DNA of 23,793 nucleotides, from positions 64,001-87,793 of the IMG/VR virus record IMGVR_UViG_3300017971_002799. The stretch is one strand, 5' to 3'. This document shows positions 1-23,793 of the stretch, piece after piece; position 1 is the first letter of the stretch; each line of letters starts with the position of its first letter. Source of the DNA: a virus (taxonomy: Duplodnaviria; Heunggongvirae; Uroviricota; Caudoviricetes). The notes beneath the pieces were generated by a model that saw only the letters and a list, made by a program, of their open reading frames with translations, was not told the origin of the DNA and did not search any database. A program made the position numbers and the translations under genes.

Positions 1-1867
1 GAGAATGGTCATTATCCTGTAATCCCGATAAGGCACCGTGGTCTTGCGCCCCAACGCCAGGGGTTAACTTAGCAGTCCTCCAGTCTACATAATCAGCACC
101 TTCATCTGTAGTACGAATTCGGGCCTTAACAGCGTTACCGTAAGAATCCCTAGTTTGGAAAATAACTGAGGCTATAGGGTGCATCTCAGGAGATATAATT
201 TCATCTATTATTATGTTATTTATCTCAACCTCAGCACCTTGCCTCGCAGATATTACATTCCCATAAGTAGACTGGCCTACTAAGACTATAGGTTTCAACT
301 CCACGTTATTAGTAGCAAACACGTGACACAAAACGAAGTCACCATTAGCCACTTCTGTAAGAGTACCTCCATTGTCCCATGCTAGGCGTCCAGTTCCTGT
401 GGTAAGAACTGAATACCCAGCATTAGTAGCCCATCGCATACCATCCAAGCCTGTATTCCTATAATAGATTTCAAGCCCAGATGCAGAACCTACTGCAGTT
501 AAATTATGTCTAAGATCCTCATCATAGATCTCTCCAGCCTCAACTCCAAATTGAGCATGAGAGTTTACATCACCACTCTGGTCTGCCTGAATATCACTAA
601 GAGCTAAACCATATGCATAAGTTGTACCAGTAGACTCATGAATCCACAAGTGCGTCCAAGGAGACATAACTATGCCGTGACGTTCCTCCATCAATCTATT
701 TGTATTATTATCATCATCCCAATAAACGTAGGCAACTAAAGCTGTGCTCAGAATAGCATTCTCAAGCTGGTCATGATTAGGATTGTATACTGCTGTAAGA
801 GTACCTCCATCATAGTAAATAACGTGAAGACCTTCATCATCAGTAATAGCAACAGAGTCCGTACCACTTACAACATATCTAAATCCATCTATATAATAAC
901 TAAATGTTCCACTAACAGGAGTTATAGAAAAAGTACGAGAGGCATCATCAAAGCTGAAGGTAGAATCTGTTGTGTTAGGAAACCCTGATGGTGACAATGT
1001 TTCCTGACTATTCTGGGCTAAAAGGTCTAAAGCCGCTTCCACATTAGTACCAGGATTATAGTAACTATATGTATCAACAATCGAGACATCTTCTGCAGCC
1101 ACAGATGGGACTGCCGGGCCCCAATCTGTACCATCAAAGGTAAGTACTTCATTCACACCTGCACTGGCGTTATTAGTACCTGTATCCGTATCTGTAAGAT
1201 TCCACAACGATGCACCGATAAAGGCTGGGGCCGAAATACTGTTCGTAGAAGTAAGACCACCAGTAAGCCCTATATCACCAATAACGGTCATATTACCGTC
1301 AAAGGCTGAAATGCCTGTAACTTGTACGCCACCATCTAGCCAAGCTACAGCATTAACCTCTAACTCATCAGACACCAGAAAATCGTCAGCATCAGACAAC
1401 CCGTGACTCGTAGTACCAGTACCCACTCTTACATAAGTAGCATTCCCTAATAACGAATCCACAGCATTCAAATCTTGCCCACTCATTTCAACACTGGAAG
1501 TAATGTCAAAAGAGATATCAAGAGTCTTACCGCTTATAGCAGTAGCAATGTTAGTACCACCTAAAACATTCAGTACATCTTCTACAGCAGTAGCCTCTAC
1601 GGATCCGCTATCCGATATATACTTAAACCAAGTAAGCTGAAGACCTCCCGACCCAGAATTAACAAAGGTTAAACCCGTGGAAGTGGCGTTAACAGCTACT
1701 ACATAATCACTAGAGCCAGTATAAGAACCTGGAGTATCAGTCAAATCCAGAAACGACTCGAGAGTTGACCCTCCACCTCCAGACTCCTCACCATAAAAGA
1801 TGAGAGCACCGAGAACGATGACTATAACGATAAATATAGCAGCTATTACTGTAAAAGAACTATTCAT
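1..1867 (-). CDS. Tail-fibre/receptor-binding-like protein with N-terminal TM anchor (622+ aa, runs off the window; absent from ORF track)
   Basis: ATG at 1867 after AGGAG SD. Read by hand: MNSSFTVIAAIFIVIVIVLGALIFYG (TM), then FLDLTDTPGSYTGSSDYVVAVNATSTGLTF and, at the edge, DHGALSGLQDNDHS; both motifs are familiar from phage fibre proteins. Both ends translated exactly; the middle was read through without noticing a stop. Confidence 0.8.
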   Translation of the reverse strand, partial: MNSSFTVIAAIFIVIVIVLGALIFYGEESGGGGSTLESFLDLTDTPGSYTGSSDYVVAVNATSTGLTFVNSGSGGLQLTWFKYISDSGSVEATAVEDVLNVLGGTNIATAISGKTLDISFDITSSVEMSGQDLNAVDSLLGNATYVRVGTGTTSHGLSDADDFLVSDELEVNAVAWLDGGVQVTGISAFDGNMTVIGDIGLTGGLTSTNSISAPAFIGASLWNLTDTDTGTNNASAGVNEVLTFDGTDWGPAVPSVAAEDVSIVDTYSYYNPGTNVEAALDLLAQNSQETLSPSGFPNTTDSTFSFDDASRTFSITPVSGTFSYYIDGFRYVVSGTDSVAITDDEGLHVIYYDGGTLTAVYNPNHDQLENAILSTALVAYVYWDDDNNTNRLMEERHGIVMSPWTHLWIHESTGTTYAYGLALSDIQADQSGDVNSHAQFGVEAGEIYDEDLRHNLTAVGSASGLEIYYRNTGLDGMRWATNAGYSVLTTGTGRLAWDNGGTLTEVANGDFVLCHVFATNNVELKPIVLVGQSTYGNVISARQGAEVEINNIIIDEIISPEMHPIASVIFQTRDSYGNAVKARIRTTDEGADYVDWRTAKLTPGVGAQDHGALSGLQDNDHS

Positions 1868-1881
1868 AGCAAGTACTCCTA

Positions 1882-2457
1882 CTACATACCCTTAACTAAA
1901 TCTTCCAAATGGCCAATCTCTGCCCCCATACCATTCAACTTTGTAATAAGGTAAAACATGAAAACCAGGATCGCTACTACAATCCCTAAAGTTACAGCCG
2001 GCAACCATTTCTTTACCCTGTTATCTTCAATAGAAGCACCCTCACGAGTACCTCTAACAATCTGTGCTAACCATCTAGGTTCCAAAATAGCGCTCATCTC
2101 AACAGCGGAATCCTTGCTACCCACTAAGTTAACCCAATCAGTGGGCTCATTCAAATCCAACGGCTGAAAATCCTCCCTCTGATACATACTACAAGGAATC
2201 ACCTGCTGAAAAAGCTTCGGCCACCCTAAAGGGAAACCCATAAACCTTATTCTACTAGGTGACACCCCATATTTCTCATCCTCAACTTGAACGTAAGGCC
2301 CCTCAACCTTGTAAAGCTTAAAAGTTATTGACTTATCCTTCTCGAGAAAGAAACAACCCATCTTACCGATTGTCCTCGCCTTTGTAAGAGCGTACACAGC
2401 AACCGGTGCTAGCATAAAGCATGCTAACATGAACAACATTCCACTTGCGGCAACCAT
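1882..2457 (-). CDS. Membrane protein, N- and C-terminal TM helices (191 aa), putative virion/morphogenesis protein
   Basis: ORF track; AGGAGGAGG SD; hydrophobic segments at both ends; lies in the structural operon. Confidence 0.7.
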   Translation of the reverse strand: MVAASGMLFMLACFMLAPVAVYALTKARTIGKMGCFFLEKDKSITFKLYKVEGPYVQVEDEKYGVSPSRIRFMGFPLGWPKLFQQVIPCSMYQREDFQPLDLNEPTDWVNLVGSKDSAVEMSAILEPRWLAQIVRGTREGASIEDNRVKKWLPAVTLGIVVAILVFMFYLITKLNGMGAEIGHLEDLVKGM

Positions 2458-2523
2458 ACAACCTCCTCCTAAATTAAAAACAACCTACTTAAACAATGAA
2501 TAAGTTATATCTCATAATAAACA

Positions 2524-2616
2524 TCACCTCTCTCTTTTATAAAATACAATCCAATTAAGAACAATCCACAACGAAACTAAAAAAGCTATGAAAAGAACAT
2601 CCTCCCAATCAAACAA
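2524..2616 (-). CDS. Putative 30-aa single-TM micro-protein (TTG start)
   Basis: Hand translation (M)FDWEDVLFIAFLVSLWIVLNWIVFYKRER*; fills an operon gap; below ORF-track cutoff. Confidence 0.4.
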   Translation of the reverse strand: MFDWEDVLFIAFLVSLWIVLNWIVFYKRER

Positions 2617-2640
2617 CGAACCGTTGTTAACTCCAAACCC

Positions 2641-2715
2641 TCAATCACCAAAAGTACGAAGCCAATCATCTTGCGGAAGTTTGTGATGTATGAATTCAAT
2701 GGGTTCTTCCTCCAT
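2641..2715 (-). CDS. Putative 24-aa acidic micro-ORF
   Basis: ATG 2 nt after the upstream stop: MEEEPIEFIHHKLPQDDWLRTFGD*. Confidence 0.3.
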   Translation of the reverse strand: MEEEPIEFIHHKLPQDDWLRTFGD

Positions 2716-2717
2716 CG

Positions 2718-3068
2718 TTAACTCACATTCCTACTAAATATTCCAGCAAGAGTCATTATAGCTCCGTATACAAACAATCCTACAAACGGAGCAATAACAA
2801 ACCACCGATAAAGCTCCCAATCTGTACCTTGAATAAATGCAAACTTTAGAGTTAACATATCAAACATACCCTGGAAGAAGCCAGGCACAGATCCTATAAC
2901 CTCCCAGAACCCCCAATCCTGTTCCTCCGAAATGGTTTGCCAGAAAGCTATTTGGTTTAACACACCTCCCTCTCCCTCTCCGAGGTAAGCACCCTCCATT
3001 ACAGCACCCAGCATACTACCGCCAAGCCACACAAAAATCAAGAACGCAACATATTTTGCTGGAAGCAT
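2718..3068 (-). CDS. Small integral membrane virion-type protein (116 aa)
   Basis: ORF track; GGAGGTG SD overlapping the upstream TAG; N- and C-terminal hydrophobic helices. Confidence 0.75.
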   Translation of the reverse strand: MLPAKYVAFLIFVWLGGSMLGAVMEGAYLGEGEGGVLNQIAFWQTISEEQDWGFWEVIGSVPGFFQGMFDMLTLKFAFIQGTDWELYRWFVIAPFVGLFVYGAIMTLAGIFSRNVS

Positions 3069-3080
3069 CTATCTCACCTC

Positions 3081-5132
3081 CTAAGTACTCCTACTAACCC
3101 ATAAGTAAAGACTACCCGCGAGTAGGTAGACTAAGAATATCCAAAGAGGAAGTACTCCAGTACCAGCAGCAGCGAATAACAAGATAGCACAAGCCGCCCC
3201 TCCTAAAAGAGAACTACCGGTCGCAATCACAACACCTACGCCAAATCCGATAGCCGTTGCAACCATTACAAAAGCATACAACTGATTACTTCCCCAACCC
3301 ATATCCTCCGAAGCCTCAGAAACTAACTCATAAACAGGTAAATTCTCCCCTTGTCCCTCTTGATACATTTTATCAGACTGACTAACTGGCCCAAACATAT
3401 CTTCAAACTCGTACTCACCAATACCAGAAGACTTGTAGGAGGTACTTTGTGTAATTGCTCCCTCAACTACCGACAAATTCGAATTCATAGCTCCTAAGAG
3501 ACAAAAAAGATCATTCCCGTTAACAGACTGATCTTCTATCTTAATACTCCCAAAAGTAATATCCTCAGCATAGAAATCCCAATTAGCTACCTTAGTATTA
3601 TAAGCAACCAATGTAAAAAACTTATAATCAGCACCATAACCAGTCCCCGAAGGATTTGTAGCATAAGACCTAACATAGTAAATAGTACCAGTAGACAAAC
3701 CACTTAAGGATCCTGTAAAGGAACCAGTACCCCAACTACCTGCTTCTGCAGTCTTACTACCAGCTACTGTAGGAAATCCAGTAGTATTCCAACAAAAGCC
3801 ACGAACCGTGGGAGCTGATGCACCCAAATCCGTTATGGTACCTCCGGCAACTGCACTCGTTGACGTTACACCCGTTATACTATCCGTTGTTAGTATTGGG
3901 GGTACATAACTTTGAGTTAAATATATAGTGCCAGGTGAATATTTACCCCATAAGTTAGAATAATATGAGCCATCTCCATAAACTATCATTGATGGCATAC
4001 CACCAGCACCTATATCCCCCCCAGAAGCCCATGCAGTTCCTACTTTTGTACCAATACCCACACTTCCATCAGTAGGAATACGCAATAACTGTAAATAAGA
4101 ACCTAAAGCAGAATCAGAAATAATTGACAAAAAATAAGGTTTAGCTACTTCACCAAATCTATAAAGTCTATCTGCTTTGCCATCAGTAATAAATTTATAA
4201 GAATCAACTGATGTAATAGTTCCGCTAGCTACAAGATTAAACGTTTCTATTTGTGCATTACCTGTATCTATTTCATGTGTATAAGCTCCTATTTTTGGAT
4301 AATCAGTTAAGTTAGATACCACAGCAGGTTTTGATACTGAACCAATAGATATAGTAGCATCAGAGAGTATAGTTTTATTTTGTTCAATACTTATAACTCC
4401 TGATGTATTTATATATACAGAAGTGAGCCCTGTATGAGCAGTTCCTGTTGAATTATTCCATGCTGTAACCCATTGATTATGTCCAAAATATTCAGTGTAA
4501 GCTCCATAAGTATTAGTTTTACCTGTACTAGCTACAGAGGTAACAGTTTGTACATCTCCAGCAGAGGTTATTTTTAAAGTTGAATATCTTAAATCTTGAG
4601 ACGCTGAAATGTCAACCCATGATACTCCGTACCAATCGCTAGAATTTTCTATGAAAAATAAATTATTATCTTCCGATTCATGCCACGCAGTTGTGAATCT
4701 ATCCGAATCTAAAAAATTATCGTTTGCTTGTGATATTGCACCACCATCAGAGATATTTAAAGTAAAAACTTTTCCGTAAGTAGCATCATGATCATTAAAA
4801 GCAAATGCCCATATATCACTTGAACCGTTAACAAAAACTCCGGCAGTTAAATCGCAACCATTTACGTTGTACGACCATGAATCAATAGCTGTAAAGGTTC
4901 CTGTATTAGAAACGCTGAAGGTCTTAACATACAGAGGATCATTACAATCACATGACGCCGCTCCGTATACATCCCCATCAATATGAAACACTTGTGGATT
5001 TTTATCATCAGTAGCTATACTACCTAAAGTAATACCCTGATCTGCAGCAAGCACAACTGAAGGTATTAACAAAGGTATAGCTAGAGATAACAGAAAGAAT
5101 AGTACTAAAAATATTCTTACACTATTAAGCAT
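3081..5132 (-). CDS. Secreted spike/adsorption protein: signal peptide, beta-rich domain, FN3-like domain, 3-TM C-terminal anchor (683 aa)
   Basis: Signal peptide ending VVLA; FN3-like module (TTDSITGVTSTSAVAGGTI...RGFCWNT...LSGLSTGTIYYVRSYATNPSGTGYG); three terminal hydrophobic helices. Confidence 0.75.
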   Translation of the reverse strand: MLNSVRIFLVLFFLLSLAIPLLIPSVVLAADQGITLGSIATDDKNPQVFHIDGDVYGAASCDCNDPLYVKTFSVSNTGTFTAIDSWSYNVNGCDLTAGVFVNGSSDIWAFAFNDHDATYGKVFTLNISDGGAISQANDNFLDSDRFTTAWHESEDNNLFFIENSSDWYGVSWVDISASQDLRYSTLKITSAGDVQTVTSVASTGKTNTYGAYTEYFGHNQWVTAWNNSTGTAHTGLTSVYINTSGVISIEQNKTILSDATISIGSVSKPAVVSNLTDYPKIGAYTHEIDTGNAQIETFNLVASGTITSVDSYKFITDGKADRLYRFGEVAKPYFLSIISDSALGSYLQLLRIPTDGSVGIGTKVGTAWASGGDIGAGGMPSMIVYGDGSYYSNLWGKYSPGTIYLTQSYVPPILTTDSITGVTSTSAVAGGTITDLGASAPTVRGFCWNTTGFPTVAGSKTAEAGSWGTGSFTGSLSGLSTGTIYYVRSYATNPSGTGYGADYKFFTLVAYNTKVANWDFYAEDITFGSIKIEDQSVNGNDLFCLLGAMNSNLSVVEGAITQSTSYKSSGIGEYEFEDMFGPVSQSDKMYQEGQGENLPVYELVSEASEDMGWGSNQLYAFVMVATAIGFGVGVVIATGSSLLGGAACAILLFAAAGTGVLPLWIFLVYLLAGSLYLWVSRST

Positions 5133-5143
5133 AACAAAACTCC

Positions 5144-6412
5144 CTAGGGCGTCGATATACTCACATCATTAAACTTACCAGCAACCATTAAAGCATATAC
5201 TGGATCTTCGTTTACAAAACATAAAGCACCAGTAGGAGTTCCAACACTCTGGCCAGCAGCCGCTTGTATAAAGATGTTAGAACCATCAAACCAACCAAGT
5301 ACAGTCTCTTCAGTTCCGGTAGCAGCTGCAACAGCGACAGTTGACTTTGATCCTGGATTCAACACATCAGTGTCTAACCAAAGTCTTGAACAAAGAACAG
5401 GCGAGCCGGATCTCCACTCAAGCAAGATTCCAGCCTGAACATCACTACCACCTGGAAAAGGTATAGCATCGCTATAAGTAGTCATAGCCGACGGAACAGC
5501 TTGTGTTCCTCCCCAAGATATCCCATGCTGAGGTGAATATGCATAAGGGGTAGCAACACCTGTACCAGAATTCCCTCCAAAACCTACTCTATAAGTAACA
5601 TCTACAGCTGCAACCGTTATTGTGCAGCCTTCTGGTAAAGTAGTTTCAAAAGAGCTCCGACCCGAAACAGTTACAGGAGGTGAGCCTGATTGGATTCCTA
5701 TCCAGGTATTATCACTCGAATCAGCAACCAATTGCCAAGGCTCACTACCGCTATTGGAAGTATAAGTTAAACCCTGATCGTAACCATTGTAATTCGGAGT
5801 CCCTACCTCATCTGATGTGGCTGCTCCAGTACCAGTCCATACACTAAACTCATAAGATGGACTAGCCGGGTTCAACCAAAGTTCATAACTGCCCTTCTTA
5901 CTAATAAGAGGCCTACCCCTACTAGGAACATCAAACAACGTCATGGTAGTACGAAGCTCGAAGTCGTCCGTTAAATCAAGCGTAGCAGAATCAGCAGCCC
6001 AAGTATAATCATCTACATCACCTAACCAAGCTTGTGAACGAGTACCTGCAGCTGGGAAACCCATCCAAAGCGTAATCTCTTTATGAGAATTACCATTAAT
6101 ACTAGACAACAAACCAGTCCAAGTAACATTTTGTGTTCCACTTAACTGCATAGCAACATGATCAAGTGTTGTAGAACCGTCCTGCAAATATGTATCGTCT
6201 GCATCCGACAACATCATACCCAAATCGACTAAAGACGCAGGCGAGATCTCAAACTGTACCCTAACGTTAGTTAAATCAGTCGAGCCCTCATTCTCAACCG
6301 TTATAGGCATACTAAAAGCGCAATTAACGTAATTAGCTTTAACTACAGGAATTGAGACAATCGACAATACGAGACAGAAAAATAAAAGAATAGCTAAAAA
6401 CCGCACGCTCAT
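5144..6412 (-). CDS. Secreted adhesin-like protein, DUF2341-like N-terminus plus interrupted LamG/ConA-like domain (422 aa)
   Basis: Signal peptide ending VVKA; MPITVENEGSTDLTNVRVQFEI resembles DUF2341; LDLTDDFEL..LISKKGSYEL, GWFDGSNIFI and GKFNDVSI resemble LamG motifs. Confidence 0.6.
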   Translation of the reverse strand: MSVRFLAILLFFCLVLSIVSIPVVKANYVNCAFSMPITVENEGSTDLTNVRVQFEISPASLVDLGMMLSDADDTYLQDGSTTLDHVAMQLSGTQNVTWTGLLSSINGNSHKEITLWMGFPAAGTRSQAWLGDVDDYTWAADSATLDLTDDFELRTTMTLFDVPSRGRPLISKKGSYELWLNPASPSYEFSVWTGTGAATSDEVGTPNYNGYDQGLTYTSNSGSEPWQLVADSSDNTWIGIQSGSPPVTVSGRSSFETTLPEGCTITVAAVDVTYRVGFGGNSGTGVATPYAYSPQHGISWGGTQAVPSAMTTYSDAIPFPGGSDVQAGILLEWRSGSPVLCSRLWLDTDVLNPGSKSTVAVAAATGTEETVLGWFDGSNIFIQAAAGQSVGTPTGALCFVNEDPVYALMVAGKFNDVSISTP

Positions 6413-8776: not shown

Positions 8777-8788
8777 TGTAAACAACCT

Positions 8789-9115: not shown

Positions 9116-9117
9116 CT

Positions 9118-10098: not shown

Positions 10099-10110
10099 TT
10101 CAAACAACCT

Positions 10111-15405: not shown

Positions 15406-15417
15406 ATCCGACAACCT

Positions 15418-15882: not shown

Positions 15883-15895
15883 TACAGACAACCCC

Positions 15896-16201
15896 TTATC
15901 CCATTCTATCGACAGCTTGTTGTATTCTGCCGTAATTGTTCTCAACAAAAGTTCTAGACCAGATAGCAGTACGAGGCACTCCCTTCGGCCAACCAGCCTC
16001 AATAAATGCAGCATTCGCGGCGTTGTAAACATTTTCCCCCATAAATACCCGCTGCGCTATATCGTCAACCATATCTTGTTCAGGGTCAGGAGCATCAGGC
16101 ACATCATCCCAATAAGGATTATACTTTCCCTCGGCCTTTAGTATATCCTTCTCCCGGCGAGTTAACGCCCCACTCTTTCCAAAGTCGCGAATATCTGACA
16201 T
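15896..16201 (-). CDS. Hypothetical protein (101 aa; ATG start re-assigned from 16210)
   Basis: GAGGTTGT-N5-ATG start motif; abuts neighbours. Confidence 0.65.
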   Translation of the reverse strand: MSDIRDFGKSGALTRREKDILKAEGKYNPYWDDVPDAPDPEQDMVDDIAQRVFMGENVYNAANAAFIEAGWPKGVPRTAIWSRTFVENNYGRIQQAVDRMG

Positions 16202-16213
16202 GATAAACAACCT

Positions 16214-16729
16214 CTAAAAAATTTGCCTCGCCCTTATACGTAATCCTGCAGGCTTCTGTCTTTGAGGCCTCCTCATTCCAAGTCTCATTTGAGGCAGAGC
16301 CGCTCTCCCCAGAGCAGGCATAGCAATTAATCCAGGAGAAGCTGCGGGTTGGGGAATTCTAGTCCTCCGGGCAGTTGGTTTTATGGACATAAAAGGATCG
16401 CTAGCTTGAGGCGTTACCATTTCCGAAGAAACAGCCGGAGTGCCGTGCAACATGAACTGCTGACTAGCTCTAGTTTCGGGCTCTTGGCCAGAAGCAATCA
16501 TCGCAGCCTTCTGCTCGCGTAACCTTTCAAAGGCATCTGAAGGATCTGAGGGGTCCAATCCTGTAGCGGGAAACTCTTGCTGAGGAGGTTCAGGAGGCTC
16601 ATATCCCGTAGCAGGCAACAGTTCTTGCAAGCTGGGCTTTGTTGTCCCAGGCCCGAAGACAAATCTTGGAGGACCTTCCATATCACTCGACATAGAAGCT
16701 ATATTAGGTAACACACTCGGTACAGGCAT
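16214..16729 (-). CDS. Pro-rich, probably disordered protein with Arg-rich tail (171 aa)
   Basis: GGGGGT SD 8 nt before ATG; first gene after an AT-rich intergenic region. Confidence 0.65.
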   Translation of the reverse strand: MPVPSVLPNIASMSSDMEGPPRFVFGPGTTKPSLQELLPATGYEPPEPPQQEFPATGLDPSDPSDAFERLREQKAAMIASGQEPETRASQQFMLHGTPAVSSEMVTPQASDPFMSIKPTARRTRIPQPAASPGLIAMPALGRAALPQMRLGMRRPQRQKPAGLRIRARQIF

Positions 16730-16741
16730 TTAACCTAACCC

Positions 16742-16753
16742 CCTTATATAAGG
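16742..16753. promoter_or_regulatory. Perfect 12-bp palindrome CCTTATATAAGG, possible operator upstream of the late operon
   Basis: Seen directly; sits in an AT-rich promoter-like gap between the terminator and the next gene. Confidence 0.35.
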
Positions 16754-16830
16754 AAGGATCTTTTATATATAATATACAAGAATATTGAACAGACCTACAA
16801 TTCGATACTAAATCTTTTCGGGGCCATATA

Positions 16831-16869
16831 GTAGAAGAGGCGCCGAGCTAAATTCAGCCCAAGCGCCCC
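16831..16869 (-). terminator. GC-rich hairpin after the capsid gene (terminator or RNA-stabilising stem)
   Basis: Minus strand GGGGCGC-TT-GGGCTGA...TTAGCTC-G-GCGCCTC then TTCTAC; the U-tract is weak. Confidence 0.55.
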
Positions 16870-16898
16870 TACCACTAATATATTTGAGGAACCAACCT

Positions 16899-17096
16899 CT
16901 AGCCTTGGCCGCCAATCCATGCGACGGCACCCAGGAGTATCACGGCTACGAAGACATACGGCAGTACGTCAACGAGCGCGGACAGTCCACTGGGGGTGTC
17001 CGTCGGCAGTGCATCGATGGTGGTCAAGATGGTGGGAATCAAGCTGACACCTACAACGATAGATATCATGATTCCGATCAGCACCGCTACCAACAT
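16899..17096 (-). CDS. Putative major capsid protein, spindle-shaped-virus (SSV1 VP1/His1-like) two-helix type (65 aa; ATG start re-assigned from 17105)
   Basis: MLVAVLIGIMISIVVGVSLIPTILTTI-DALPTDTPSG-LSALVDVLPYVFVAVILLGAVAW: two hydrophobic helices with G-x-x-L-h-P-x-I and L-h-x-h-h-P signatures around a polar turn; own GGAGG SD and terminator, as expected for a highly expressed gene. Confidence 0.7.
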   Translation of the reverse strand: MLVAVLIGIMISIVVGVSLIPTILTTIDALPTDTPSGLSALVDVLPYVFVAVILLGAVAWIGGQG

Positions 17097-17256
17097 TCGA
17101 GACAACCTCCGGTAAGATTTAGAAAAACGTTAGTCTTTCGGTACATTATAATTATCCCCAATATATCTGGACATTTCCATAGTCATATTATAAAGGACCA
17201 CTAAAAAATCACAGCTAACCTATACAACCAGTCAATGAGCCTTAATACGATGACTA

Positions 17257-17285
17257 TTGATTTTCTTCTTCCTATATGCTATAAT
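17257..17285 (+). promoter_or_regulatory. Bacterial sigma70/sigmaA promoter for the right arm
   Basis: TTGATT (17257-62), 17-nt spacer, TATAAT (17280-85) with extended -10 TG at 17277-78; AGGGAG SD and ATG at 17312 follow. Confidence 0.75.
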
Positions 17286-17311: not shown

Positions 17312-17539
17312 ATGGAAAAATGGACTGTCACAATCTTCGGACGGGAAATCACGGTATCCGCAGAAGACCGCTACAGAGCTAAGAGAGAGGCTGCTAAATC
17401 CTTTAATGCAACCACGGGTAACAACATAGCTATCTCTTCTCTTGTTGCCGTAGCTAGAATACGTAAACATAAAGACAACAGAATAAAATATGCGGACGTC
17501 CTCATTGATGATGTTAGTCTAGAAGGTTCAGAAGAATGA
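17312..17539 (+). CDS. Hypothetical protein, first early gene (75 aa)
   Basis: ORF directly after promoter and SD. Confidence 0.7.
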   Translation: MEKWTVTIFGREITVSAEDRYRAKREAAKSFNATTGNNIAISSLVAVARIRKHKDNRIKYADVLIDDVSLEGSEE

Positions 17540-17751
17540 TGTGTCAACACTGCCAAGACGCAATCATGACCTATAAGGAAACAAGCTTCGAAGCTGAAGC
17601 TCAACAAGGACAAAACCCTAGACGCCCCAATCACTTAATAGTCTTTATCTTCGAAAACTACGAGTGTGAATCATGTGGGACACAACTACAAACAAAAACA
17701 CAACAAACCTACGAACTGAAAACAGAAACACGCTTACGACTGAAGCTATAA
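17536..17751 (+). CDS. Zinc-ribbon protein (71 aa)
   Basis: CQHC ... CESC; ATGA overlap with the upstream gene. Confidence 0.65.
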   Translation: MMCQHCQDAIMTYKETSFEAEAQQGQNPRRPNHLIVFIFENYECESCGTQLQTKTQQTYELKTETRLRLKL

Positions 17752-17823
17752 TCAGACAATTCATAGCTCTCACCGTAGGTGTAATGTTATTAAATACAGC
17801 CGCAAAATATACGAAGGAGAAAT

Positions 17824-18384
17824 ATGTCAGACTATATACAACAAGAAATCTTAAAAGCCTTGAAGAGCGTCGACCGTCCTGGAATGGAGGACGTGGTAGA
17901 GTTTCTCATCACGAGAAACTTCTTCAAATGTCCAGCCTCTACCAAATTCCACGGCAACTACGAAGGAGGCCTCGCAGAGCACTCCTTGAATGTGTGCAAG
18001 AACTTCACGGAGCTTTTGGAAGCTACCAATCTCTTGGAAGAAGTGCCAGCAGATACAATCATAATATCTACAATACTCCACGACATCTGCAAAGTAGGAG
18101 CCTACATACCTAATAACAACGGAGGCTTCAAATGGAACAGAGAACATCCCAAGGGTCACGGCACCCTTTCAGTCAAACGTCTCATGTCTCTTATTGAGCT
18201 CACTCCACTAGAGAGAGACTTAATCAACTTCCACATGGGACCTTGGAACACCTTCCAGATGATCGGAACAGACAAAGGCGACTACACAGTTATGGACCTA
18301 AAAGAAGCCTGGAATCGAAACCTAGCCACACGCTTCCTATACTTCGCAGACGAAATCGCCACCGTTACCGAACCGGTAAAATAG
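17824..18384 (+). CDS. HD-domain metal-dependent phosphohydrolase (186 aa)
   Basis: KFHGNYEGGLAEHSLNV, ILHDICK, HPKGHG, FHMG and YFADE motifs typical of phage HD proteins; GAAGGAG SD. Confidence 0.9.
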   Translation: MSDYIQQEILKALKSVDRPGMEDVVEFLITRNFFKCPASTKFHGNYEGGLAEHSLNVCKNFTELLEATNLLEEVPADTIIISTILHDICKVGAYIPNNNGGFKWNREHPKGHGTLSVKRLMSLIELTPLERDLINFHMGPWNTFQMIGTDKGDYTVMDLKEAWNRNLATRFLYFADEIATVTEPVK

Positions 18385-18385
18385 T

Positions 18386-18586
18386 ATGGCCTTTGCGCTT
18401 TATCAACTAGCACTACAGAACCCGAACACTAGAAAGAAGTGGGAAGATTTTGATAGAAGACATCCAGGACTACTAGATAAATGTCCCGAATGTAATTCTC
18501 CCATGCTTAGATTCTCCAACAACCCTCGCATGGGCATCATAGAATGTATCTGCCCAGACCACGGACTAATTTTACTAGAACCATAG
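18386..18586 (+). CDS. Zinc-finger protein (66 aa)
   Basis: CPEC ... CICPDH. Confidence 0.6.
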   Translation: MAFALYQLALQNPNTRKKWEDFDRRHPGLLDKCPECNSPMLRFSNNPRMGIIECICPDHGLILLEP

Positions 18587-18590
18587 ACAA

Positions 18591-19211
18591 ATGAAAGAAC
18601 TCACTCTTGAAATAACGAACAAGTGTCAACTAGAATGTCCCTGGTGCAGCTCAGTCTCTCATCCTGGAGGACCTGACACACCTGAAGACATCTTACACAA
18701 AAAACTTATCGAACACAGAGACACAGTTAATGTAGTACGAATGTCAGGAGGAGAACCTACTCTACACAAAGGACTACGTAGATTACTAGCTCGAGCTAAA
18801 GACTTCAGTGCGCACACCCAACTTCTAACAAACGGACAAATCGAATTTACCAGTAGGTTCATCGACGAATATATAATCCAGATAGTAAACAACAAAGCTT
18901 GCAGGACAGCTACACAACTACACGATAAGGGCTATAAAGTATCTACACACGTAGTAGCTGTACAAGGTAACGAAATCAATCTCATTAAAGCCATGGAACT
19001 AATGAGAGAAGAACTCATTCCACTTAGAATACTAAGTCTACAACACCAAGGCAGAGGAACAGCTTGTACTCCTATGTACAGTCTATCCTGGACAGGAGAC
19101 AGAGGCTGCAAGAAAACCCAAAAAATAACATTCACAACCCAACAAGAAGAAATAACGTGTAGCGCTTTAAAAGAAGGCCCTTGCTTAATCAGTGGCCTCT
19201 ACAGAACATAA
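18591..19211 (+). CDS. Radical SAM protein (206 aa)
   Basis: ITNKCQLECPWC (CxxxCxxC), SGGEPTLH, TNG; extra Cys residues near the C-terminus. Confidence 0.92.
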   Translation: MKELTLEITNKCQLECPWCSSVSHPGGPDTPEDILHKKLIEHRDTVNVVRMSGGEPTLHKGLRRLLARAKDFSAHTQLLTNGQIEFTSRFIDEYIIQIVNNKACRTATQLHDKGYKVSTHVVAVQGNEINLIKAMELMREELIPLRILSLQHQGRGTACTPMYSLSWTGDRGCKKTQKITFTTQQEEITCSALKEGPCLISGLYRT

Positions 19212-19215
19212 TTAT

Positions 19216-19288
19216 GGGGAACCCAGGTCGACGATTCGACCGCGCCTACCCAGACGTAGAGATTCTAATCGCCTGGTAATCCCCACCA
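19216..19288 (+). ncRNA. 73-nt tRNA/tmRNA-TLD-like structured RNA candidate ending ACCA
   Basis: GGGGA pairs with TCCCC-ACCA; CCAGG/CCTGG, GGTCGA/TCGACC and CTAC/GTAG stems; intergenic; not a canonical cloverleaf. Confidence 0.45.
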
Positions 19289-19295
19289 AAAGAAA

Positions 19296-19475
19296 ATGGG
19301 CGTAACAATCTTACCATCAACTCTCGACGGATCATATACTCCAATCTGTAACGACTGCGGGGTTGCACTCTGTTGGGATATATCAGAAGAAGAATACCAA
19401 GAAAAGAAAGAAGCCTGGGACAACTGGATCTGTAAAGATTGTAAGGAGCACAATGCCAAACATTTACGAGTATGA
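19296..19475 (+). CDS. Zinc-finger protein (59 aa; absent from ORF track)
   Basis: Hand translation MGVTILPSTLDGSYTPICNDCGVALCWDISEEEYQEKKEAWDNWICKDCKEHNAKHLRV*. Confidence 0.7.
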   Translation: MGVTILPSTLDGSYTPICNDCGVALCWDISEEEYQEKKEAWDNWICKDCKEHNAKHLRV

Positions 19476-19797
19476 AGGAGACTCTTACGAAGACATATAT
19501 CTCACCTCCGGAATGTTAATATCCCACGGCTTCACTCGAATTGTTCACGGAGACAGAGGGGCCTACGTAGAGTTTGACCCAGAACAAATCCTCCACGAAA
19601 ACCTCTTCGTGCCGGATGACAAGAAATGGAAACTCAGACATGAAATGGTTTACTTCGTAGAACATAGAACAAACGACGGAACCTTCTCTCTCGTGTACGA
19701 ACAAAGAAGAGAAGTAGACTACGCAGACTACGTACCCGGAATGTTTTACATCTCACCAACAAAACTAAAAGGATTTGTCGTCACAGACAAGTATTAA
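19453..19797 (+). CDS. Conserved-looking phage hypothetical protein (114 aa; start re-assigned to MPNIYEY)
   Basis: AAGGAG SD before ATG at 19453; aromatic-rich, globular-looking sequence. Confidence 0.7.
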   Translation: MPNIYEYEGDSYEDIYLTSGMLISHGFTRIVHGDRGAYVEFDPEQILHENLFVPDDKKWKLRHEMVYFVEHRTNDGTFSLVYEQRREVDYADYVPGMFYISPTKLKGFVVTDKY

Positions 19798-19800
19798 GAC

Positions 19801-19916
19801 AGAGCTGGGAGTATAACTCAGTAGGTAGGAACTTGCCGGGTTCTTTCTAATTGAGATTCGTGCTCGTGACACATAGCCTACTTGGGGTGAGTGCAAGTTT
19901 TAACCCCGCCAGCTCT
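19801..19916 (+). ncRNA. ~116-nt structured RNA / leader upstream of the lipoprotein gene
   Basis: AGAGCTGG/CCAGCTCT closing stem; CTCAGTAGG/CCTACTTGGG inner stem; GGAACT/GGTTCT hairpin; tRNA-like D-loop and T-loop look-alike segments. Confidence 0.45.
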
Positions 19917-19934
19917 CAACAAAAAGGAGGAATC

Positions 19935-20426
19935 ATGAAAAGAATACTCACCATCGGAATAATCCTAATAACCCTCAGTCTCCTAATGTCTCTTATGATA
20001 ACAGCCTGCGATAAGAACGTAAGAGTGGAAGTCACTGGAGGCACACCAGAAGAAACTCCCGAAGTAACACCAACAGAAACAGAAACGCCGTTTCTTCCTA
20101 TAGACACAGAAACACCTTTACCAACAGTAACAGGCACTGGTCCCGGCACACTTCTACCCATGCCTACAATTATAGCGCCGACACCTACTGAAGAACCAAC
20201 ACCACCTATACCTACAATGACTTTGGTTCCCATCCCAACAGAAGAACCGTTACCAATAGTTACACCCGGCACTATAATGTTCCCAACACCAGAACCTACA
20301 ACTGTAAAACCTACACCGACTATCGAGTTACCACTGCCGTTACCAACAACTGATCCAGGAACGCCTGTAATAACACCTATACCAACAATCGAAGGACCAA
20401 TAATCGAGCCGTTACCGGGGATTTAA
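19935..20426 (+). CDS. Pro/Thr-rich lipoprotein (163 aa; start re-assigned from 19851)
   Basis: AGGAGG SD; MKR + hydrophobic core + ITAC lipobox; imperfect TP/PT repeats to the end. Confidence 0.8.
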   Translation: MKRILTIGIILITLSLLMSLMITACDKNVRVEVTGGTPEETPEVTPTETETPFLPIDTETPLPTVTGTGPGTLLPMPTIIAPTPTEEPTPPIPTMTLVPIPTEEPLPIVTPGTIMFPTPEPTTVKPTPTIELPLPLPTTDPGTPVITPIPTIEGPIIEPLPGI

Positions 20427-20672
20427 ATGCGATCACAGAACACTACCAAAAGATTTACCGAAAAGCACAAACAGATAATGATACGAGTAGGCCAGGGAAA
20501 AGAGCAAAAAGAAATAGCCGCAGAACTCGGAGGCTCCCACAGAACTATAGGAAACCATATAATGGTTATTTGTGACGTTCTAAAGGCTAGAAACAAAACT
20601 CATGCCCTACTCCTTGCAATAAAACAAGGTTACATAGACCTGGAAGAAATAAAGTTATCAGTGGAGGCCTAA
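20427..20672 (+). CDS. Stand-alone LuxR/GerE-type HTH regulator (81 aa)
   Basis: GKEQKEIAAELGGSHRTIGNHI...LKARNKTHALLLAIKQGYI matches the LuxR HTH pattern. Confidence 0.88.
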   Translation: MRSQNTTKRFTEKHKQIMIRVGQGKEQKEIAAELGGSHRTIGNHIMVICDVLKARNKTHALLLAIKQGYIDLEEIKLSVEA

Positions 20673-20674
20673 AC

Positions 20675-20977
20675 ATGTGTGAAGAACTCGCATGCATGAT
20701 ATGTGGAGAATCAGCTGCCGAGAGAACATTAAGAGGAGGCTACGTCGCTACTCTTTGTATTACTCACCAAAACGATTGGAATAGGCATAACTTCGATTAC
20801 ACAAAAGCAGAAAGAAGATCGCGATTTGACTTCCTCCAAGAGAAAGCAAACAACTACGACATAGAAGAATCCGAATATCTAGAAATGACAAACTTCTACG
20901 AAGAATTCTTCCGCATAGCAGACGACTGGATTATAGAAGAAATCAACAAGTACGACCTAATCGGTCACCCAAATTAA
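20675..20977 (+). CDS. Zn-binding phage hypothetical protein (100 aa)
   Basis: CMICG...GYVATLCITH motif; GGAGG SD. Confidence 0.6.
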   Translation: MCEELACMICGESAAERTLRGGYVATLCITHQNDWNRHNFDYTKAERRSRFDFLQEKANNYDIEESEYLEMTNFYEEFFRIADDWIIEEINKYDLIGHPN

Positions 20978-20980
20978 AAC

Positions 20981-21079
20981 ATGGACGCCGCTAGTATAGC
21001 TCTTATAGTCCTTATGGGATTACCTTCACTAGTCGCCATCATCGTCATCATAGTAATTTACACAGGAGACAAAGAATAA
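20981..21079 (+). CDS. 32-aa single-TM micro-protein (absent from ORF track)
   Basis: MDAASIALIVLMGLPSLVAIIVIIVIYTGDKE*; TAATG overlap with the next gene. Confidence 0.6.
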   Translation: MDAASIALIVLMGLPSLVAIIVIIVIYTGDKE

Positions 21080-21306
21080 TGATATACCTAGCAATAGCCC
21101 TTAGCTACCTGCTTATAGGCATTTCTATATGCTCTATCATTGTCTACGCCACCAGGCAAAATCCTCACCCTGCAACAGTCGAGGAAATGCCCATACTCAC
21201 AGCCATCAGTTTAAGCTGGCCGATGGTCATCCTCTCAGCTCTTATATGGTTACCCTTAAAACCTCTTACCATTAAATGGTTTCAATTCTTAAGCTGTAGG
21301 AGATAA
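21079..21306 (+). CDS. Small 2-TM membrane protein (75 aa)
   Basis: Two hydrophobic segments; AGGAG SD. Confidence 0.65.
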   Translation: MIYLAIALSYLLIGISICSIIVYATRQNPHPATVEEMPILTAISLSWPMVILSALIWLPLKPLTIKWFQFLSCRR

Positions 21307-21307
21307 T

Positions 21308-21499
21308 ATGCACTTGTTATATTCGATACTAGGAAACATTATTCCAGCCATCGTCTTGCTTATCTTCTTCTACAAAGGATGTTCTAACGATCCTATGGGC
21401 TATACCGTTGCAATATCCGGCACTCTGTGGCTCATACTCATCGTCTTTGAAGCCCACCGTTACGACCGAATACAGCTAAAGGAACGCGAAAAGAAATGA
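21308..21499 (+). CDS. Small 2-TM membrane protein (63 aa)
   Basis: Two hydrophobic segments; abuts neighbours. Confidence 0.6.
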   Translation: MHLLYSILGNIIPAIVLLIFFYKGCSNDPMGYTVAISGTLWLILIVFEAHRYDRIQLKEREKK

Positions 21500-21678
21500 G
21501 TAAAAACTGGAGAGGTCTCTGGTGTCTAAAATGTTCTCGCTCCTACGAAACTGGGAAGCTTAAATGTCAAAAATGCGGAGGCCCACTTGTAACCATACAA
21601 ACATTCAAAACATATAAATCGGAGGAAGAAAATGACGGCAGCGAGAGACCCGAAGGTTATAGAAACCCTAACACCTAA
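21496..21678 (+). CDS. Zinc-ribbon protein (60 aa)
   Basis: CLKC ... CQKCGG. Confidence 0.65.
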   Translation: MSKNWRGLWCLKCSRSYETGKLKCQKCGGPLVTIQTFKTYKSEEENDGSERPEGYRNPNT

Positions 21679-22021
21679 AGAAGTACTAGTCATAGCTCAA
21701 ATAGCCAAAGGACGAAAAAATGCTGCTATAGCCAGCGAGGTTAGTACCACAACAAAAACAGTCGAAAAACATATCAACTCCATCTACGACAAACTAAACA
21801 TACAATACAATGAACACGCTAGAATAATAGCAGCGTTAACATACCTAGCCTATCAACGACTCCACAACAACCACACAATCAAAATATACATAAGCTGTGG
21901 ACGTAGCACCGGCTTCGTTGACGAGTTCCATGTAACAGACATAAACGACGAACCTCTTAAACCTCAAGAGTTCCCAAGCAGTTGGGCCGGTAAACGCTTT
22001 CAACTTATCGACGCGCCATGA
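21632..22021 (+). CDS. LuxR-type HTH regulator with C-terminal extension (129 aa)
   Basis: LTPKEVLVIAQIAKGRKNAAIA...TKTVEKHINSIYDKL...HARIIAALTY. Confidence 0.88.
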   Translation: MTAARDPKVIETLTPKEVLVIAQIAKGRKNAAIASEVSTTTKTVEKHINSIYDKLNIQYNEHARIIAALTYLAYQRLHNNHTIKIYISCGRSTGFVDEFHVTDINDEPLKPQEFPSSWAGKRFQLIDAP

Positions 22022-22230
22022 AAATTGCAATCATCGTGCTGGATGCTTTCCCGGTCAACTGTGTCTTCTGTATGAAAGACATCTGGCCTAGCAAAAGTCC
22101 TTGCGTGTCTTTCTTTGAAGGCGAACTCGTAGATCCAGACATAGCAGAAGAATGGGCAGGAGGTTGGGCTTGTCCTGAATGCTACTTAGAGAAAAGCTCA
22201 AATGAAAATCCGACTTACCGCAGCTATTGA
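22018..22230 (+). CDS. Zinc-finger protein (70 aa)
   Basis: CVFC ... CPEC. Confidence 0.55.
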   Translation: MKIAIIVLDAFPVNCVFCMKDIWPSKSPCVSFFEGELVDPDIAEEWAGGWACPECYLEKSSNENPTYRSY

Positions 22231-22453
22231 TCTCTACTTACTCATAGCCTTCATCGCCGCTCTGGGAAACGTTACGACCATTCTTATCCTAAGCGAAGCA
22301 CGAGACCAACCAGTACTTATTTACACAAACAACTATCAAGAAAGATGGCCTGAGATAATATTCTTCACAGGAGCTTGTATCCTAGCTATCTATCGACTAC
22401 CCAAACTAATCGGACGCACCCTAATCAAACTAGTTCTAGGAGACACCAAGTGA
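22202..22453 (+). CDS. Small 2-TM membrane protein (83 aa)
   Basis: Two hydrophobic segments. Confidence 0.6.
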   Translation: MKIRLTAAIDLYLLIAFIAALGNVTTILILSEARDQPVLIYTNNYQERWPEIIFFTGACILAIYRLPKLIGRTLIKLVLGDTK

Positions 22454-22731
22454 GTCCAAATAAAAAAGAACCCGTAGACAACAGACTAGCTCTCATACTT
22501 ACATTCATTGTGGTATTCTTCTACACAATCGACCAACTAAGAGAAGCCGGTCTAACATGGCTCATCTACATAATCATGCCACTCGCTACAATAGTGTTAA
22601 CTGTAGGCTTTTTCTATCGAAAGCATCAGTCCACACAAAACCTAATAGAACGACTTCAATCCCCTAAAGGAATGTCCATTGCCATAGCCCTCATTGGCTT
22701 AGCTATAGTAATGCACTTCGTAATAAGATGA
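22450..22731 (+). CDS. 3-TM membrane protein (93 aa; GTG start re-assigned from 22375)
   Basis: GTGA overlap with the upstream stop; three hydrophobic segments. Confidence 0.6.
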   Translation: MSPNKKEPVDNRLALILTFIVVFFYTIDQLREAGLTWLIYIIMPLATIVLTVGFFYRKHQSTQNLIERLQSPKGMSIAIALIGLAIVMHFVIR

Positions 22732-23354
22732 AAGAAGAACTACCCGGAAGCACAGAACACACAAGAGGAACCACCATGCGAACAACCATAAGAACAAGAA
22801 TCAACTACGGAAAACTCGGGCACTTAACTTGTTACAGTGGGCCACCCAACTCAGGACTCACCCTTGCATCCGTTATACATGTCTGCAAACTGCACAAGCT
22901 CGACCCAAGTAGACAAGTTATATCTAACACTCACCTAACAAAAATTCCCTACAAACCCTTTTCAATCTTCGAACTAGATCAATACACCCACAGTATTATC
23001 TTTATAGACTACATCCACTCCCTTGTAGATTCTCGAACAAGCGAACAAACCATTTCTCAAGCTATAACGAAATTCATGCAAGCCCTAAGAGCTTGGGACT
23101 GTATTGTCGTAATGAACGCCCCTAACCATGTACTAATACACGAACCCATACGAAGACAAATAACTGATATCTTTAGACCTACCTACTACCAAAACAAACG
23201 AGGCACCCCCTACCTAAAACTCTTTAAACTCCCGAACCCCCTCAAAGAAAACTACCAGATAGCTTATAAACCAATTCGTGTACGCAAATACTTCAAACAC
23301 TCCAACACTCGAGAAGTCTTTAATCCTTTTATATCTAAATGGCAACATGTATGA
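22728..23354 (+). CDS. Zot/pI-like P-loop ATPase homolog with degenerate Walker A and B (208 aa)
   Basis: GPPNSGLT, VISNTHL, IIFIDYIH..DSR, FMQALR and IRRQ follow the Zot-family motif order, but Walker A K is L and Walker B E is Y. Confidence 0.7.
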   Translation: MKEELPGSTEHTRGTTMRTTIRTRINYGKLGHLTCYSGPPNSGLTLASVIHVCKLHKLDPSRQVISNTHLTKIPYKPFSIFELDQYTHSIIFIDYIHSLVDSRTSEQTISQAITKFMQALRAWDCIVVMNAPNHVLIHEPIRRQITDIFRPTYYQNKRGTPYLKLFKLPNPLKENYQIAYKPIRVRKYFKHSNTREVFNPFISKWQHV

Positions 23355-23586
23355 GCAACTACAACTAAACATGGATCTCTTATTAACATATCTACCATTC
23401 GATCTCCCTAGGCAAAACCCTATAAATGAAAGACTCCTCTACCAACTAGGACACAAGCCCCCAGAACTTATAATGTTAGACGAATTCTATCTCCTCTGGA
23501 GTACTGAAGCCACTCTACACCTACGAAAAGCACACCGAATATTAAACCCTCACCTATACGAAGAACCAACACCTCCAACCCTTTAG
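23347..23586 (+). CDS. Hypothetical protein with Walker-B-like LIMLDEF (79 aa; start re-assigned from 23278)
   Basis: ATG at 23347 overlaps the ATPase stop. Confidence 0.5.
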   Translation: MYEQLQLNMDLLLTYLPFDLPRQNPINERLLYQLGHKPPELIMLDEFYLLWSTEATLHLRKAHRILNPHLYEEPTPPTL

Positions 23587-23762
23587 AACCGGCCCCTCCC
23601 CTCACCTGCCGCATTGCGATAAAGGACCAAACAAACCTCCCTACCTAGGTCCCTACGTGGCTATTTGGGCCGAGCTGATAGTCCCCTGTTCAGACCTCTC
23701 ACACAATCTGGTCGTCTAGATCACTCCCCCGTGTGGGTATTCGTCGTTGGCCCCAATTTAAA

Positions 23763-23793
23763 CCACCCCCCCCACCACCCACCGCCCACCCCC
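23763..23793 (-). repeat. G-run tract able to form a G-quadruplex at the window end
   Basis: Minus strand GGGGG-T-GGG-CGGT-GGG-TGGT-GGGGGGGG-TGG. Confidence 0.7.

Follow-up and report, generated by a model that had tools for sequence, protein, structure and literature searches.

Which particle would an 88-kb virus build that encodes none of the familiar tailed-phage head proteins, and does it infect a bacterium or an archaeon? These questions are raised by the virus record IMGVR_UViG_3300017971_002799, of which we analyzed a stretch of 23,793 nt (in the following called the window), equivalent to bases 64001–87793 of one contig of 87,793 bp. It covers the right arm of a linear double-stranded (ds) DNA genome of 87.8 kb, nearly complete in the contig, that belongs to an uncultivated non-tailed virus from anoxic marine sediment. 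To our knowledge, viruses with a hairpin coat protein of the SSV1/His1 type have long been treated as restricted to archaea, all described genomes being well under 40 kb and none of the spindle-type viruses with this coat coming near 88 kb. A preliminary description of the sequence had proposed a morphogenesis module of the archaeal spindle-virus type without tailed-phage genes, in a virus of bacteria. The module is supported by profile, fold, synteny and the link of its ATPase to the wyrdviruses. We put at roughly 0.75 the probability that this linear, non-tailed virus carries a spindle-type virion module, with a hairpin coat protein, anchored adhesins and a pI/Zot-type ATPase, and that its particles would be membrane-wrapped and non-lytic.

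The major coat protein candidate has 65 aa and is encoded at 16899–17096 on the minus strand, with GGAGG 8 nt upstream of its ATG. Hydropathy and an AlphaFold2 (AF2) model agree on two hydrophobic helices with a polar turn between them; the model is an α-hairpin with helices at residues 2–28 and 36–63 (predicted local distance difference test, pLDDT, 89.7). Foldseek placed SSV19 VP1 (7xdi_A) first, with a TM-score of 0.82, a root-mean-square deviation of 2.4 and a probability of 1.0, all other matches in the PDB having TM-scores of at most 0.6. As a single query against the whole PDB, the protein found only SSV19 VP1 (E 0.07), which was also the sole significant match (E 2.7e-7) of a profile built from 35 sequences of the coat family. 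The Pfam family His1_capsid was matched by 15 of these 35 members, with a best E-value of 2.8e-5. Judged from these profiles and the predicted fold, the 65-aa protein belongs to the His1/SSV1-VP1 coat family (Pfam PF25665/PF06281). A pVIII-like or pilin-like result, which the preliminary description had named as speaking against a capsid, did not occur.

Relatives of the coat protein form at least 159 clusters at 90% identity and 116 representatives at 50%. Many of the latter are 100–300 aa long, with an N-terminal hairpin and extra sequence, and could be fusions, read-through calls or products of another genetic code. A tblastn search against GenBank phages gave no match, and the only taxon listed in the ESM Atlas for the coat and for the ATPase is “Viruses”. 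One related contig (L016:27–473) encodes two coat paralogs in tandem, 75% and 68% identical to the coat in the window. In four relatives (L005, L007/L018, L016 and L017) the coat gene lies at most ~1.1 kb from the contig end and is transcribed inward; in the present genome an outward-transcribed operon of 6.7 kb lies between the coat gene and the terminus.

The coat gene had also been credited with its own Shine–Dalgarno (SD) sequence and terminator. The former is the GGAGG mentioned above, while the latter is weakened: the stable hairpin that RNAfold predicts just 3′ of the coat stop codon (~16829–16877, minus strand) has no clean T-run and was not called by the terminator scan. The 86-nt stretch that contains it (16820–16905, minus strand) has a predicted folding energy of −40.7 kcal/mol as a whole.

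The second component, an assembly ATPase, is encoded three times in the genome by pI/Zot-like paralogs (contig 57155–57718, contig 58991–59659 and window 22728–23354), and only the second has intact Walker motifs. This intact copy, P0261 (222 aa), lies 4.3 kb to the left of the window. It has a GAGKS Walker A and an LDE Walker B motif, a Zn-ribbon insert and no transmembrane (TM) segment, and it matches Pfam Zot (E 1e-4) and the PHROG pI family (E 3.5e-6). A homolog in a related contig is 45% identical (E 2e-62). Among GenBank viruses its best match is WyrdV1 (E 1e-9), followed by Muninn virus, these two having identities of 31–36% and ranking ahead of an inovirus pI. The paralog in the window (plus strand) gives a weak AAA match (E 9e-4) and keeps the motif hhhhD..L.DSR; it is a degenerate paralog, because the Walker-A lysine is lost. 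The Zot-like ATPase reported for the window is therefore pI/Zot-like in kind, and the intact copy is the one outside.

The third line of evidence is the conserved gene order. In five related contigs the coat gene is followed by a gene for a large, non-conserved protein, genes for small proteins, and homologs of the 576-aa and 683-aa proteins of the window. Next in the relatives come homologs of its 116-aa and 191-aa proteins, and the longer contigs add a homolog of 104 aa and the pI/Zot-like ATPase. At the head of this late operon, the coat gene is also its best-conserved member and has a promoter of its own.

The ends and the remaining gene content of the genome fit a non-tailed virus. Contig positions 1–96 are the exact reverse complement of positions 87586–87681 (window 23586–23681; 96 of 96 identical by blastn of both ends), and with these inverted terminal repeats (ITRs) at both ends the genome is linear. 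The right terminus (window 23586–23793, no strand assigned) consists of this inverted copy and 112 nt beyond the repeat; the left contig end is therefore ~112 nt short. Past the ITR, the right terminus ends in a C-rich run. The IMG/VR record has a CheckV completeness of 96%, and a second assembly of the same virus measures 87,816 bp. The sequence is present in two public DNA sequencing runs of a sediment/seawater study, with no RNA run listed.

Pfam was run on essentially all open reading frames (ORFs) of the contig of at least 55 aa, and PHROGs on the large ORFs without assignment. These contig-wide scans yielded no HK97 capsid, portal or terminase family, which bears out the earlier statement that tailed-phage head genes are not recognizable. 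Neither did they yield a jelly-roll or double jelly-roll (DJR) capsid, an FtsK/HerA packaging ATPase, an integrase, a peptidoglycan hydrolase or a lysis enzyme. The contig does encode a protein-primed DNA polymerase B (pPolB; DNA_pol_B_2, E 2.9e-34) in addition to PolA (UDG-PolA), a ribonucleotide reductase (RNR), UvrD-like and Cas4-like proteins, Rad52/Sak, a BRCT protein, a flotillin and, according to Pfam, the 7-deazaguanine genes FolE, QueD, QueE and QueC. The pPolB matches tectiviruses, autolykiviruses and Methanosarcina spherical virus among others, with similar scores for viruses of bacteria and of archaea.

Several observations weigh against a spindle-type module. Taken alone, the coat protein matches His1_capsid with E 0.007, below the Pfam cut-off (16.7 bits, the cut-off being 27), and matches between hydrophobic hairpins can arise from composition. 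Aligning the coat family with the single coat sequences of WyrdV1 and Muninn virus by hhalign was not significant, and tblastn linked no other protein of the module to a wyrdvirus protein. The folds of several large proteins (538, 691 and 1764 aa) are unassigned. Since 88 kb is far above the genome size of known viruses with the hairpin coat, it is conceivable that the profiles missed a different capsid.

For the question of the host, the promoters are of particular interest. A 23-nt element (CCTTAATAATATGACTAT-TGAAA, with variants) occurs four times in the genome, always between genes. Each copy ends in a −35-like hexamer (TTGAAA, TGGAAT, TGGAAA or TTGATT), and a TATAAT or GATAAT box stands at a distance of exactly 17 nt, with an extended TGn in two of the four copies. 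Two copies stand back to back in the divergent region 17151–17285 of the window. That of the coat/late operon (17151–17196, minus strand) consists of CCTTTATAATATGACTA and TGGAAA, 17 nt and GATAAT; that of the right-arm operon (17240–17285, plus strand) of CCTTAATACGATGACTA and TTGATT, 17 nt including TGc, and TATAAT, followed by GGAG and an ATG at 17312. The near-consensus sigma-70 promoter of the preliminary description is contained in the latter (TTGATT-17-TGc-TATAAT at 17257–17285). The other two copies, with the same element and 17-nt spacing, lie outside the window (contig 21227–21285, plus strand, and ~53510–53566, minus strand). The late and right-arm operons would be driven from the shared divergent region, the right arm contributing regulators and accessory genes.

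Apart from these copies, a perfect TTGACA-17-TATAAT is located 19 nt before the start of the BRCT gene, where ~0.03 such sites are expected genome-wide. Sites matching the sigma-70 consensus in at least 11 of 12 positions number 5 in the genome against 1.4 ± 1.2 in simulations, with no enrichment in archaeal controls; this statistic is weak because real bacteriophage controls were not enriched either. Within the window, sigma-70-like sites (35 vs 30.8 ± 5.1) and terminator-like sites (14 vs 16.4 ± 4.2) were no commoner than in shuffled sequences. For every one of these promoters, an archaeal TATA box preceded by an activator site is an alternative reading.

Overall, the odds for the host domain are about even, with a slight lean to Bacteria. 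The bacterial host of the preliminary description is neither established nor refuted. The SD sequences, LuxR domains, lipobox and single promoter match do not discriminate. SD use is strong in the virus and moderate in Bathyarchaeia, and the LuxR helix-turn-helix (HTH) is not specific to bacteria, GerE domains being found in two archaeal control genomes and in 6–7 of 61 Bathyarchaeia.

We give an even chance to a bacterial host, most plausibly a member of a sediment lineage that lacks a thick peptidoglycan wall, for instance the Dehalococcoidia/Chloroflexota, in which a sigma-70 RNA polymerase assisted by viral LuxR-type activators would transcribe the virus. The sigma-70 geometry of the four-copy promoter with its fixed 17-nt spacing points in this direction, as do the position of the 23-nt element, centered near −44 where LuxR-type activators bind, the three GerE proteins of the virus, the perfect site before the BRCT gene and the count of near-consensus sites; against this stand the archaeal reading open to all these promoters and the low power of the count. 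The replication module resembles that of phages (UDG-PolA, Rad52/Sak, UvrD, BRCT and 7-deazaguanine genes). PolA was found in none of 41 Bathyarchaeia and in no archaeal control, and the contig scans with Pfam detected no TFB, PCNA, MCM or other archaeal information-processing family. The fibre motif discussed below is shared with cyanophages, and the Dehalococcoides element IME1 shows that a pI-like ATPase and SSV1-VP1-like proteins can occur together in bacterial viruses (bioRxiv 10.64898/2026.09.15.751708). A bacterial host agrees less well with the best named matches of the ATPase, which are Asgard viruses, with a relative binned in a Bathyarchaeia metagenome-assembled genome (MAG) that has no sigma-70 gene, and with DUF5658, a family seen only in archaeal controls; nor was any bacterial provirus, spacer or host-derived gene found. 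The fuller claim, that this virus and its relatives of 80–115 kb infect Bacteria and build their particles from the coat and assembly-ATPase kit of archaeal spindle viruses, is held tentatively, at a shade below even odds.

An archaeal host of anoxic sediments, either Bathyarchaeia or Asgard, is a serious possibility that falls somewhat short of even; the virus would then be a giant relative of the wyrdviruses that acquired a phage-like replication module. The virus has the coat family, gene order and ATPase seen in Asgard viruses assigned by CRISPR, and the relatives have their coat gene within ~1 kb of the contig end as does Muninn virus. The only match among 185,579 species genomes was a wholly viral contig, that of the binned relative, in the Bathyarchaeia MAG lacking sigma-70, but binning of such elements is error-prone (bioRxiv 10.64898/2026.09.15.751708). 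The DUF5658 family was present in three archaeal controls and in 4–6 of 41 Bathyarchaeia but in 0 of 10 bacterial controls, and for a DUF5661 protein of the virus this same MAG contains a homolog of 40% identity, encoded on a contig that looks cellular. SD use and GC content are compatible with Bathyarchaeia, and the contig scans contained no peptidoglycan hydrolase. An archaeal host is disfavored by the sigma-70-like promoters, by the presence of PolA and by the lack of archaeal-type replication or transcription genes among those found. No spacer match was detected by blast in 401 Bathyarchaeia genomes (with 20 kb of the window) or in the MAG itself (with the window and the binned relative), where matches of 18–37 nt were at chance level; this search had limited sensitivity, with no more than a few candidates scored in each genome. 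In the two tRNA insertions, no bulge-helix-bulge motif of the archaeal kind was found at usable positions. Among the tRNA genes of 81 Bathyarchaeia genomes, none exceeds 80% full-length identity to the viral tRNA-Met, a similarity that is uninformative on the host.

The DUF5658 protein is a membrane protein encoded at contig 34510–34830, just upstream of the RNR gene. A homology search with it among 5.8 billion proteins returned only itself and no close homolog.

From the example of the fuselloviruses, His1 and the wyrdviruses we infer the shape of the virion, its budding and the roles of individual proteins. The hairpin coat protein would accumulate in the cell membrane and wrap a DNA–protein core as a lipid-associated lattice, the DNA probably being condensed by basic small late proteins. 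Adhesin-like proteins may be held in the shell or membrane by their multi-helix C-terminal anchors, at one end of the particle. The pI/Zot-type ATPase would drive assembly or extrusion at the membrane, and the particles may leave the cell without lysis.

Whether such a particle is a lemon, a filament or pleomorphic cannot be read from the sequence. A filamentous or pleomorphic particle built by the same module is less likely than not. An assembly ATPase of the filamentous-phage pI type would suit it, viral fractions rich in IME1 showed filaments (bioRxiv 10.64898/2026.09.15.751708), and coat lattices of the SSV type can form tubes; all structurally characterized viruses of the coat family, however, are spindle-shaped (PDB 7xdi). 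Far less probable still is that the hairpin is a mere membrane or accessory protein and the real capsid an unrecognized icosahedral shell, for instance a DJR with an inner membrane, since the pPolB matches to tectiviruses, autolykiviruses and Methanosarcina spherical virus, a weak match of one distant coat-family member to PRD1_DD, the large proteins without assignment and a genome unusually large for the hairpin type are countered by the lack of DJR capsid and FtsK/HerA families in the scans, by a structural block whose sole ATPase is of the pI/Zot type common to spindle-shaped Asgard viruses, by the leading, best-conserved and separately promoted position of the hairpin gene, and by a spindle-virus coat protein as the only PDB relative of the hairpin.

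The other genes of the late operon, all on the minus strand, add detail to the spindle-type module. In seven late genes within 8776–17109 the start codon (ATG or GTG) lies exactly 13 nt downstream from the G of a (T)AGAGGTTGT motif, the (T)AGAGGTTGT-N5-ATG/GTG spacing being identical in all seven. Starts based on this motif moved several gene calls, for example to 1764, 154 and 101 aa. In many cases the TAG of the motif doubles as the stop codon of the gene before it, a hint that translation of the late genes is coupled.

Downstream of the coat gene, three small genes at 15418–16729, distinguished by composition and with starts set by the motif, encode proteins of 171, 101 and 154 aa without family matches; the last is strongly basic (32 K+R), and all three are candidate DNA-condensing or internal proteins. 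They are followed by the gene for a 1764-aa protein rich in A, P, T and V with a polybasic C-terminal tail (10111–15405), whose start was set by the GAGGTTGT-N5-ATG motif. Its place after the coat is kept in the relatives, where the proteins have 759–1053 aa, while its sequence is not, and it has no Pfam or PHROG match; it is a candidate internal, tape-measure-like or fibre protein. Six small genes follow at 8441–10098, for a 77-aa Zn-ribbon protein, a second protein of 77 aa, a basic protein of 115 aa conserved in the relatives, a 68-aa protein, a KOW-like protein of 110 aa and a winged-HTH-like protein of 111 aa.

The 576-aa protein (6724–8454) is a core gene product of the module, resembling a membrane-anchored adhesin. 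It has a signal peptide, an immunoglobulin (Ig)-like N-terminal domain (residues ~30–215) that is conserved, an inserted β-sandwich (~340–470) and a C-terminal anchor of three TM segments; the versions in the relatives have ~330 aa and 36–41% identity. The AF2 model reaches a pLDDT of 51 overall and ~75 in the N-domain. Compared with adhesin/FN3-like and carbohydrate-binding module (CBM)-like sandwiches, the domains gave middling VIA Z scores of 7–8, from which the N-domain is a candidate Ig-like and the insert a candidate CBM-like fold. Next come a 422-aa secreted protein (5144–6412) with a weakly CARDB-like N-terminus (Pfam CARDB, E 0.066) and weak matches in the relatives, and a 683-aa secreted protein with a C-terminal multi-TM anchor (3081–5132), the C-terminal third of which is conserved in relatives of 764–799 aa. 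Of the large secreted proteins with three-TM anchors described initially, the signal-like N-termini and multi-TM anchors stand, and hydropathy gives three segments for the 576-aa and two for the 683-aa protein; the bacterial-type FN3 module is not borne out, Pfam assigning no FN3 family in the 683-aa protein. N-glycosylation sequons are not enriched in the secreted proteins.

Two small membrane proteins of 116 and 191 aa with two TM segments each (1882–3068) are encoded by core genes, with tblastn E-values of 1e-8 to 1e-24 to the relatives. The window begins within the gene for a fibre-like protein with an N-terminal TM anchor, of which it contains the N-terminal 622 of 1003 aa (2–1867), the rest continuing left to contig 62856. 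The protein matches PHROG 677 (baseplate/tail-fibre connector) with E 1.6e-9, and a 60-aa motif in it also occurs in cyanomyovirus gp9-like proteins. The late module extends beyond the left edge of the window with fibre genes and P0261.

The right-arm operon (17312–23586, plus strand) is transcribed toward the genome end and encodes Zn-ribbon proteins, enzymes, regulators and small membrane proteins. The HD hydrolase (17824–18384) and radical-SAM protein (18591–19211) proposed earlier are real according to Pfam, as are the two LuxR HTH proteins (20427–20672 and 21632–22021; GerE, E 1.4e-8 and 4.9e-11); a third GerE/LuxR protein is encoded elsewhere on the contig. The proposed lipobox of the protein at 19935–20426 is a motif (..LMITAC) visible by eye only. 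A tmRNA-like RNA proposed at 19216–19288 was not recovered, with no Rfam match at E up to 1 and no ARAGORN call; in the whole window Rfam gave no match at this threshold, and elsewhere on the contig only tRNAs. Among these, tRNA-Pro(TGG) at contig 12676–12872 has a 103-nt insertion at 37/38 and tRNA-Leu(TAA) at contig 23883–24000 a 40-nt insertion, both too short for group I introns. The 3′ CCA is gene-encoded in at least tRNA-Met and tRNA-Leu.

This is a large-genome virus of the known wyrdvirus/His1-like kind; what makes it of interest is its genome size, its abundance and its ambiguous host domain, the type of module having already been reported for Dehalococcoides in a 2026 preprint. The lineage comprises more than 150 coat-protein clusters in public metagenomes, with contigs of up to 115 kb. 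Here a hairpin coat and a filamentous-phage-type ATPase go together with a linear genome of 88 kb that encodes two DNA polymerases and a pathway for DNA hypermodification. This raises the known packaging capacity of the hairpin-coat virion design several-fold. The mixed signals make this virus a concrete test case for whether the design crosses the divide between bacteria and archaea, and the four-copy promoter provides a direct experimental handle on which RNA polymerase reads it. If the host is bacterial, an archaeal-style virion would be made by a widespread lineage of bacterial viruses that occur in sediments and have large genomes, and no longer just by the small integrating IME1.

Among known systems, the Tectiviridae-like viruses are distinguished by a DJR capsid and an FtsK/HerA ATPase, which Pfam and PHROGs did not find here. 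The Caudoviricetes share only the 60-aa fibre motif, with no HK97 capsid, portal or large terminase found. The Inoviridae and Tubulavirales have in common with the present virus an assembly ATPase of the pI/Zot family, a small hydrophobic coat protein and a putative extrusion without lysis, but inoviruses have circular single-stranded DNA of 5–12 kb, their coat protein carries a signal peptide and has a basic C-terminus, and their pI contains a membrane segment; the present virus shows none of these traits. The Fuselloviridae (SSV1, SSV19) are alike in coat fold (TM-score 0.82 to SSV19 VP1), in tandem coat paralogs, seen in a relative and resembling VP1/VP3, in membrane-anchored terminal proteins and in a non-lytic budding that is presumed for the present virus. 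They differ in a circular, integrating genome of 15–24 kb with a tyrosine integrase and a DnaA-like ATPase, of which none was found.

With the Halspiviridae (His1) and Thaspiviridae (NSV1), whose hosts are haloarchaea and ammonia-oxidizing archaea, the virus shares a hairpin coat (PF25665), linear dsDNA, ITRs and pPolB. Their genomes have 14–29 kb, while here PolA, a pI/Zot-type ATPase and ~100 more genes are present; beyond coat and polymerase no shared genes were detected.

The earlier pointer to IME1 was apt, as a pI-like ATPase together with SSV1-VP1-like proteins is reported there. The IME1 of Dehalococcoides and Dehalogenimonas are integrative elements of 21–28 kb, proposed to be budding or filamentous bacterial viruses (Nesbo et al. 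2026, bioRxiv 10.64898/2026.09.15.751708). Compared by description only, they resemble the present virus as non-tailed dsDNA elements with a pI-like ATPase, small TM proteins, one of them SSV1 VP1-like, and a CARDB-type secreted protein. They differ in gene order, the ATPase coming first and the TM proteins after it, and in being circular or integrated with a tyrosine recombinase, a resolvase and a primase-helicase, none of which appeared in the Pfam scans of the contig. The present virus is not itself an IME1, as its genome is linear, lacks an integrase and is four times larger.

The closest resemblance in organization is to two groups of Asgard viruses, the wyrdviruses (Lokiarchaeota virus WyrdV1, MZ666939) and Muninn virus of Odinarchaeum (OM716000). 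In the wyrdvirus module a His1-like coat gene, present once or twice, is combined with an adhesin, a set of five conserved genes and a pI-like ATPase without TM segments; the replication modules vary, some members having pPolB, and Zn-finger proteins are numerous (bioRxiv 10.1101/2021.07.29.453957). Their genomes measure 12–26 kb against 88 kb here, so that the ~10–26 kb expected of such a virus is exceeded, and they lack a counterpart to the large phage-like replication and nucleotide module of the present virus (PolA with pPolB, RNR and 7-deazaguanine genes), which in turn has no TFB-like gene. Gene order and kinds are the same, but tblastn detected no similarity in the adhesin or the five-gene block. 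Both groups come from deep sediment and encode many Zn-finger proteins, linear genomes with pPolB occur in some members, Muninn virus among them, and in Muninn virus the coat gene adjoins the genome end as in the relatives of the present virus. In all of them a hairpin coat gene heads a block of adhesin, small genes and an ATPase of the pI/Zot type without TM segments, the place at the end of the morphogenetic block being taken here by P0261, outside the window.

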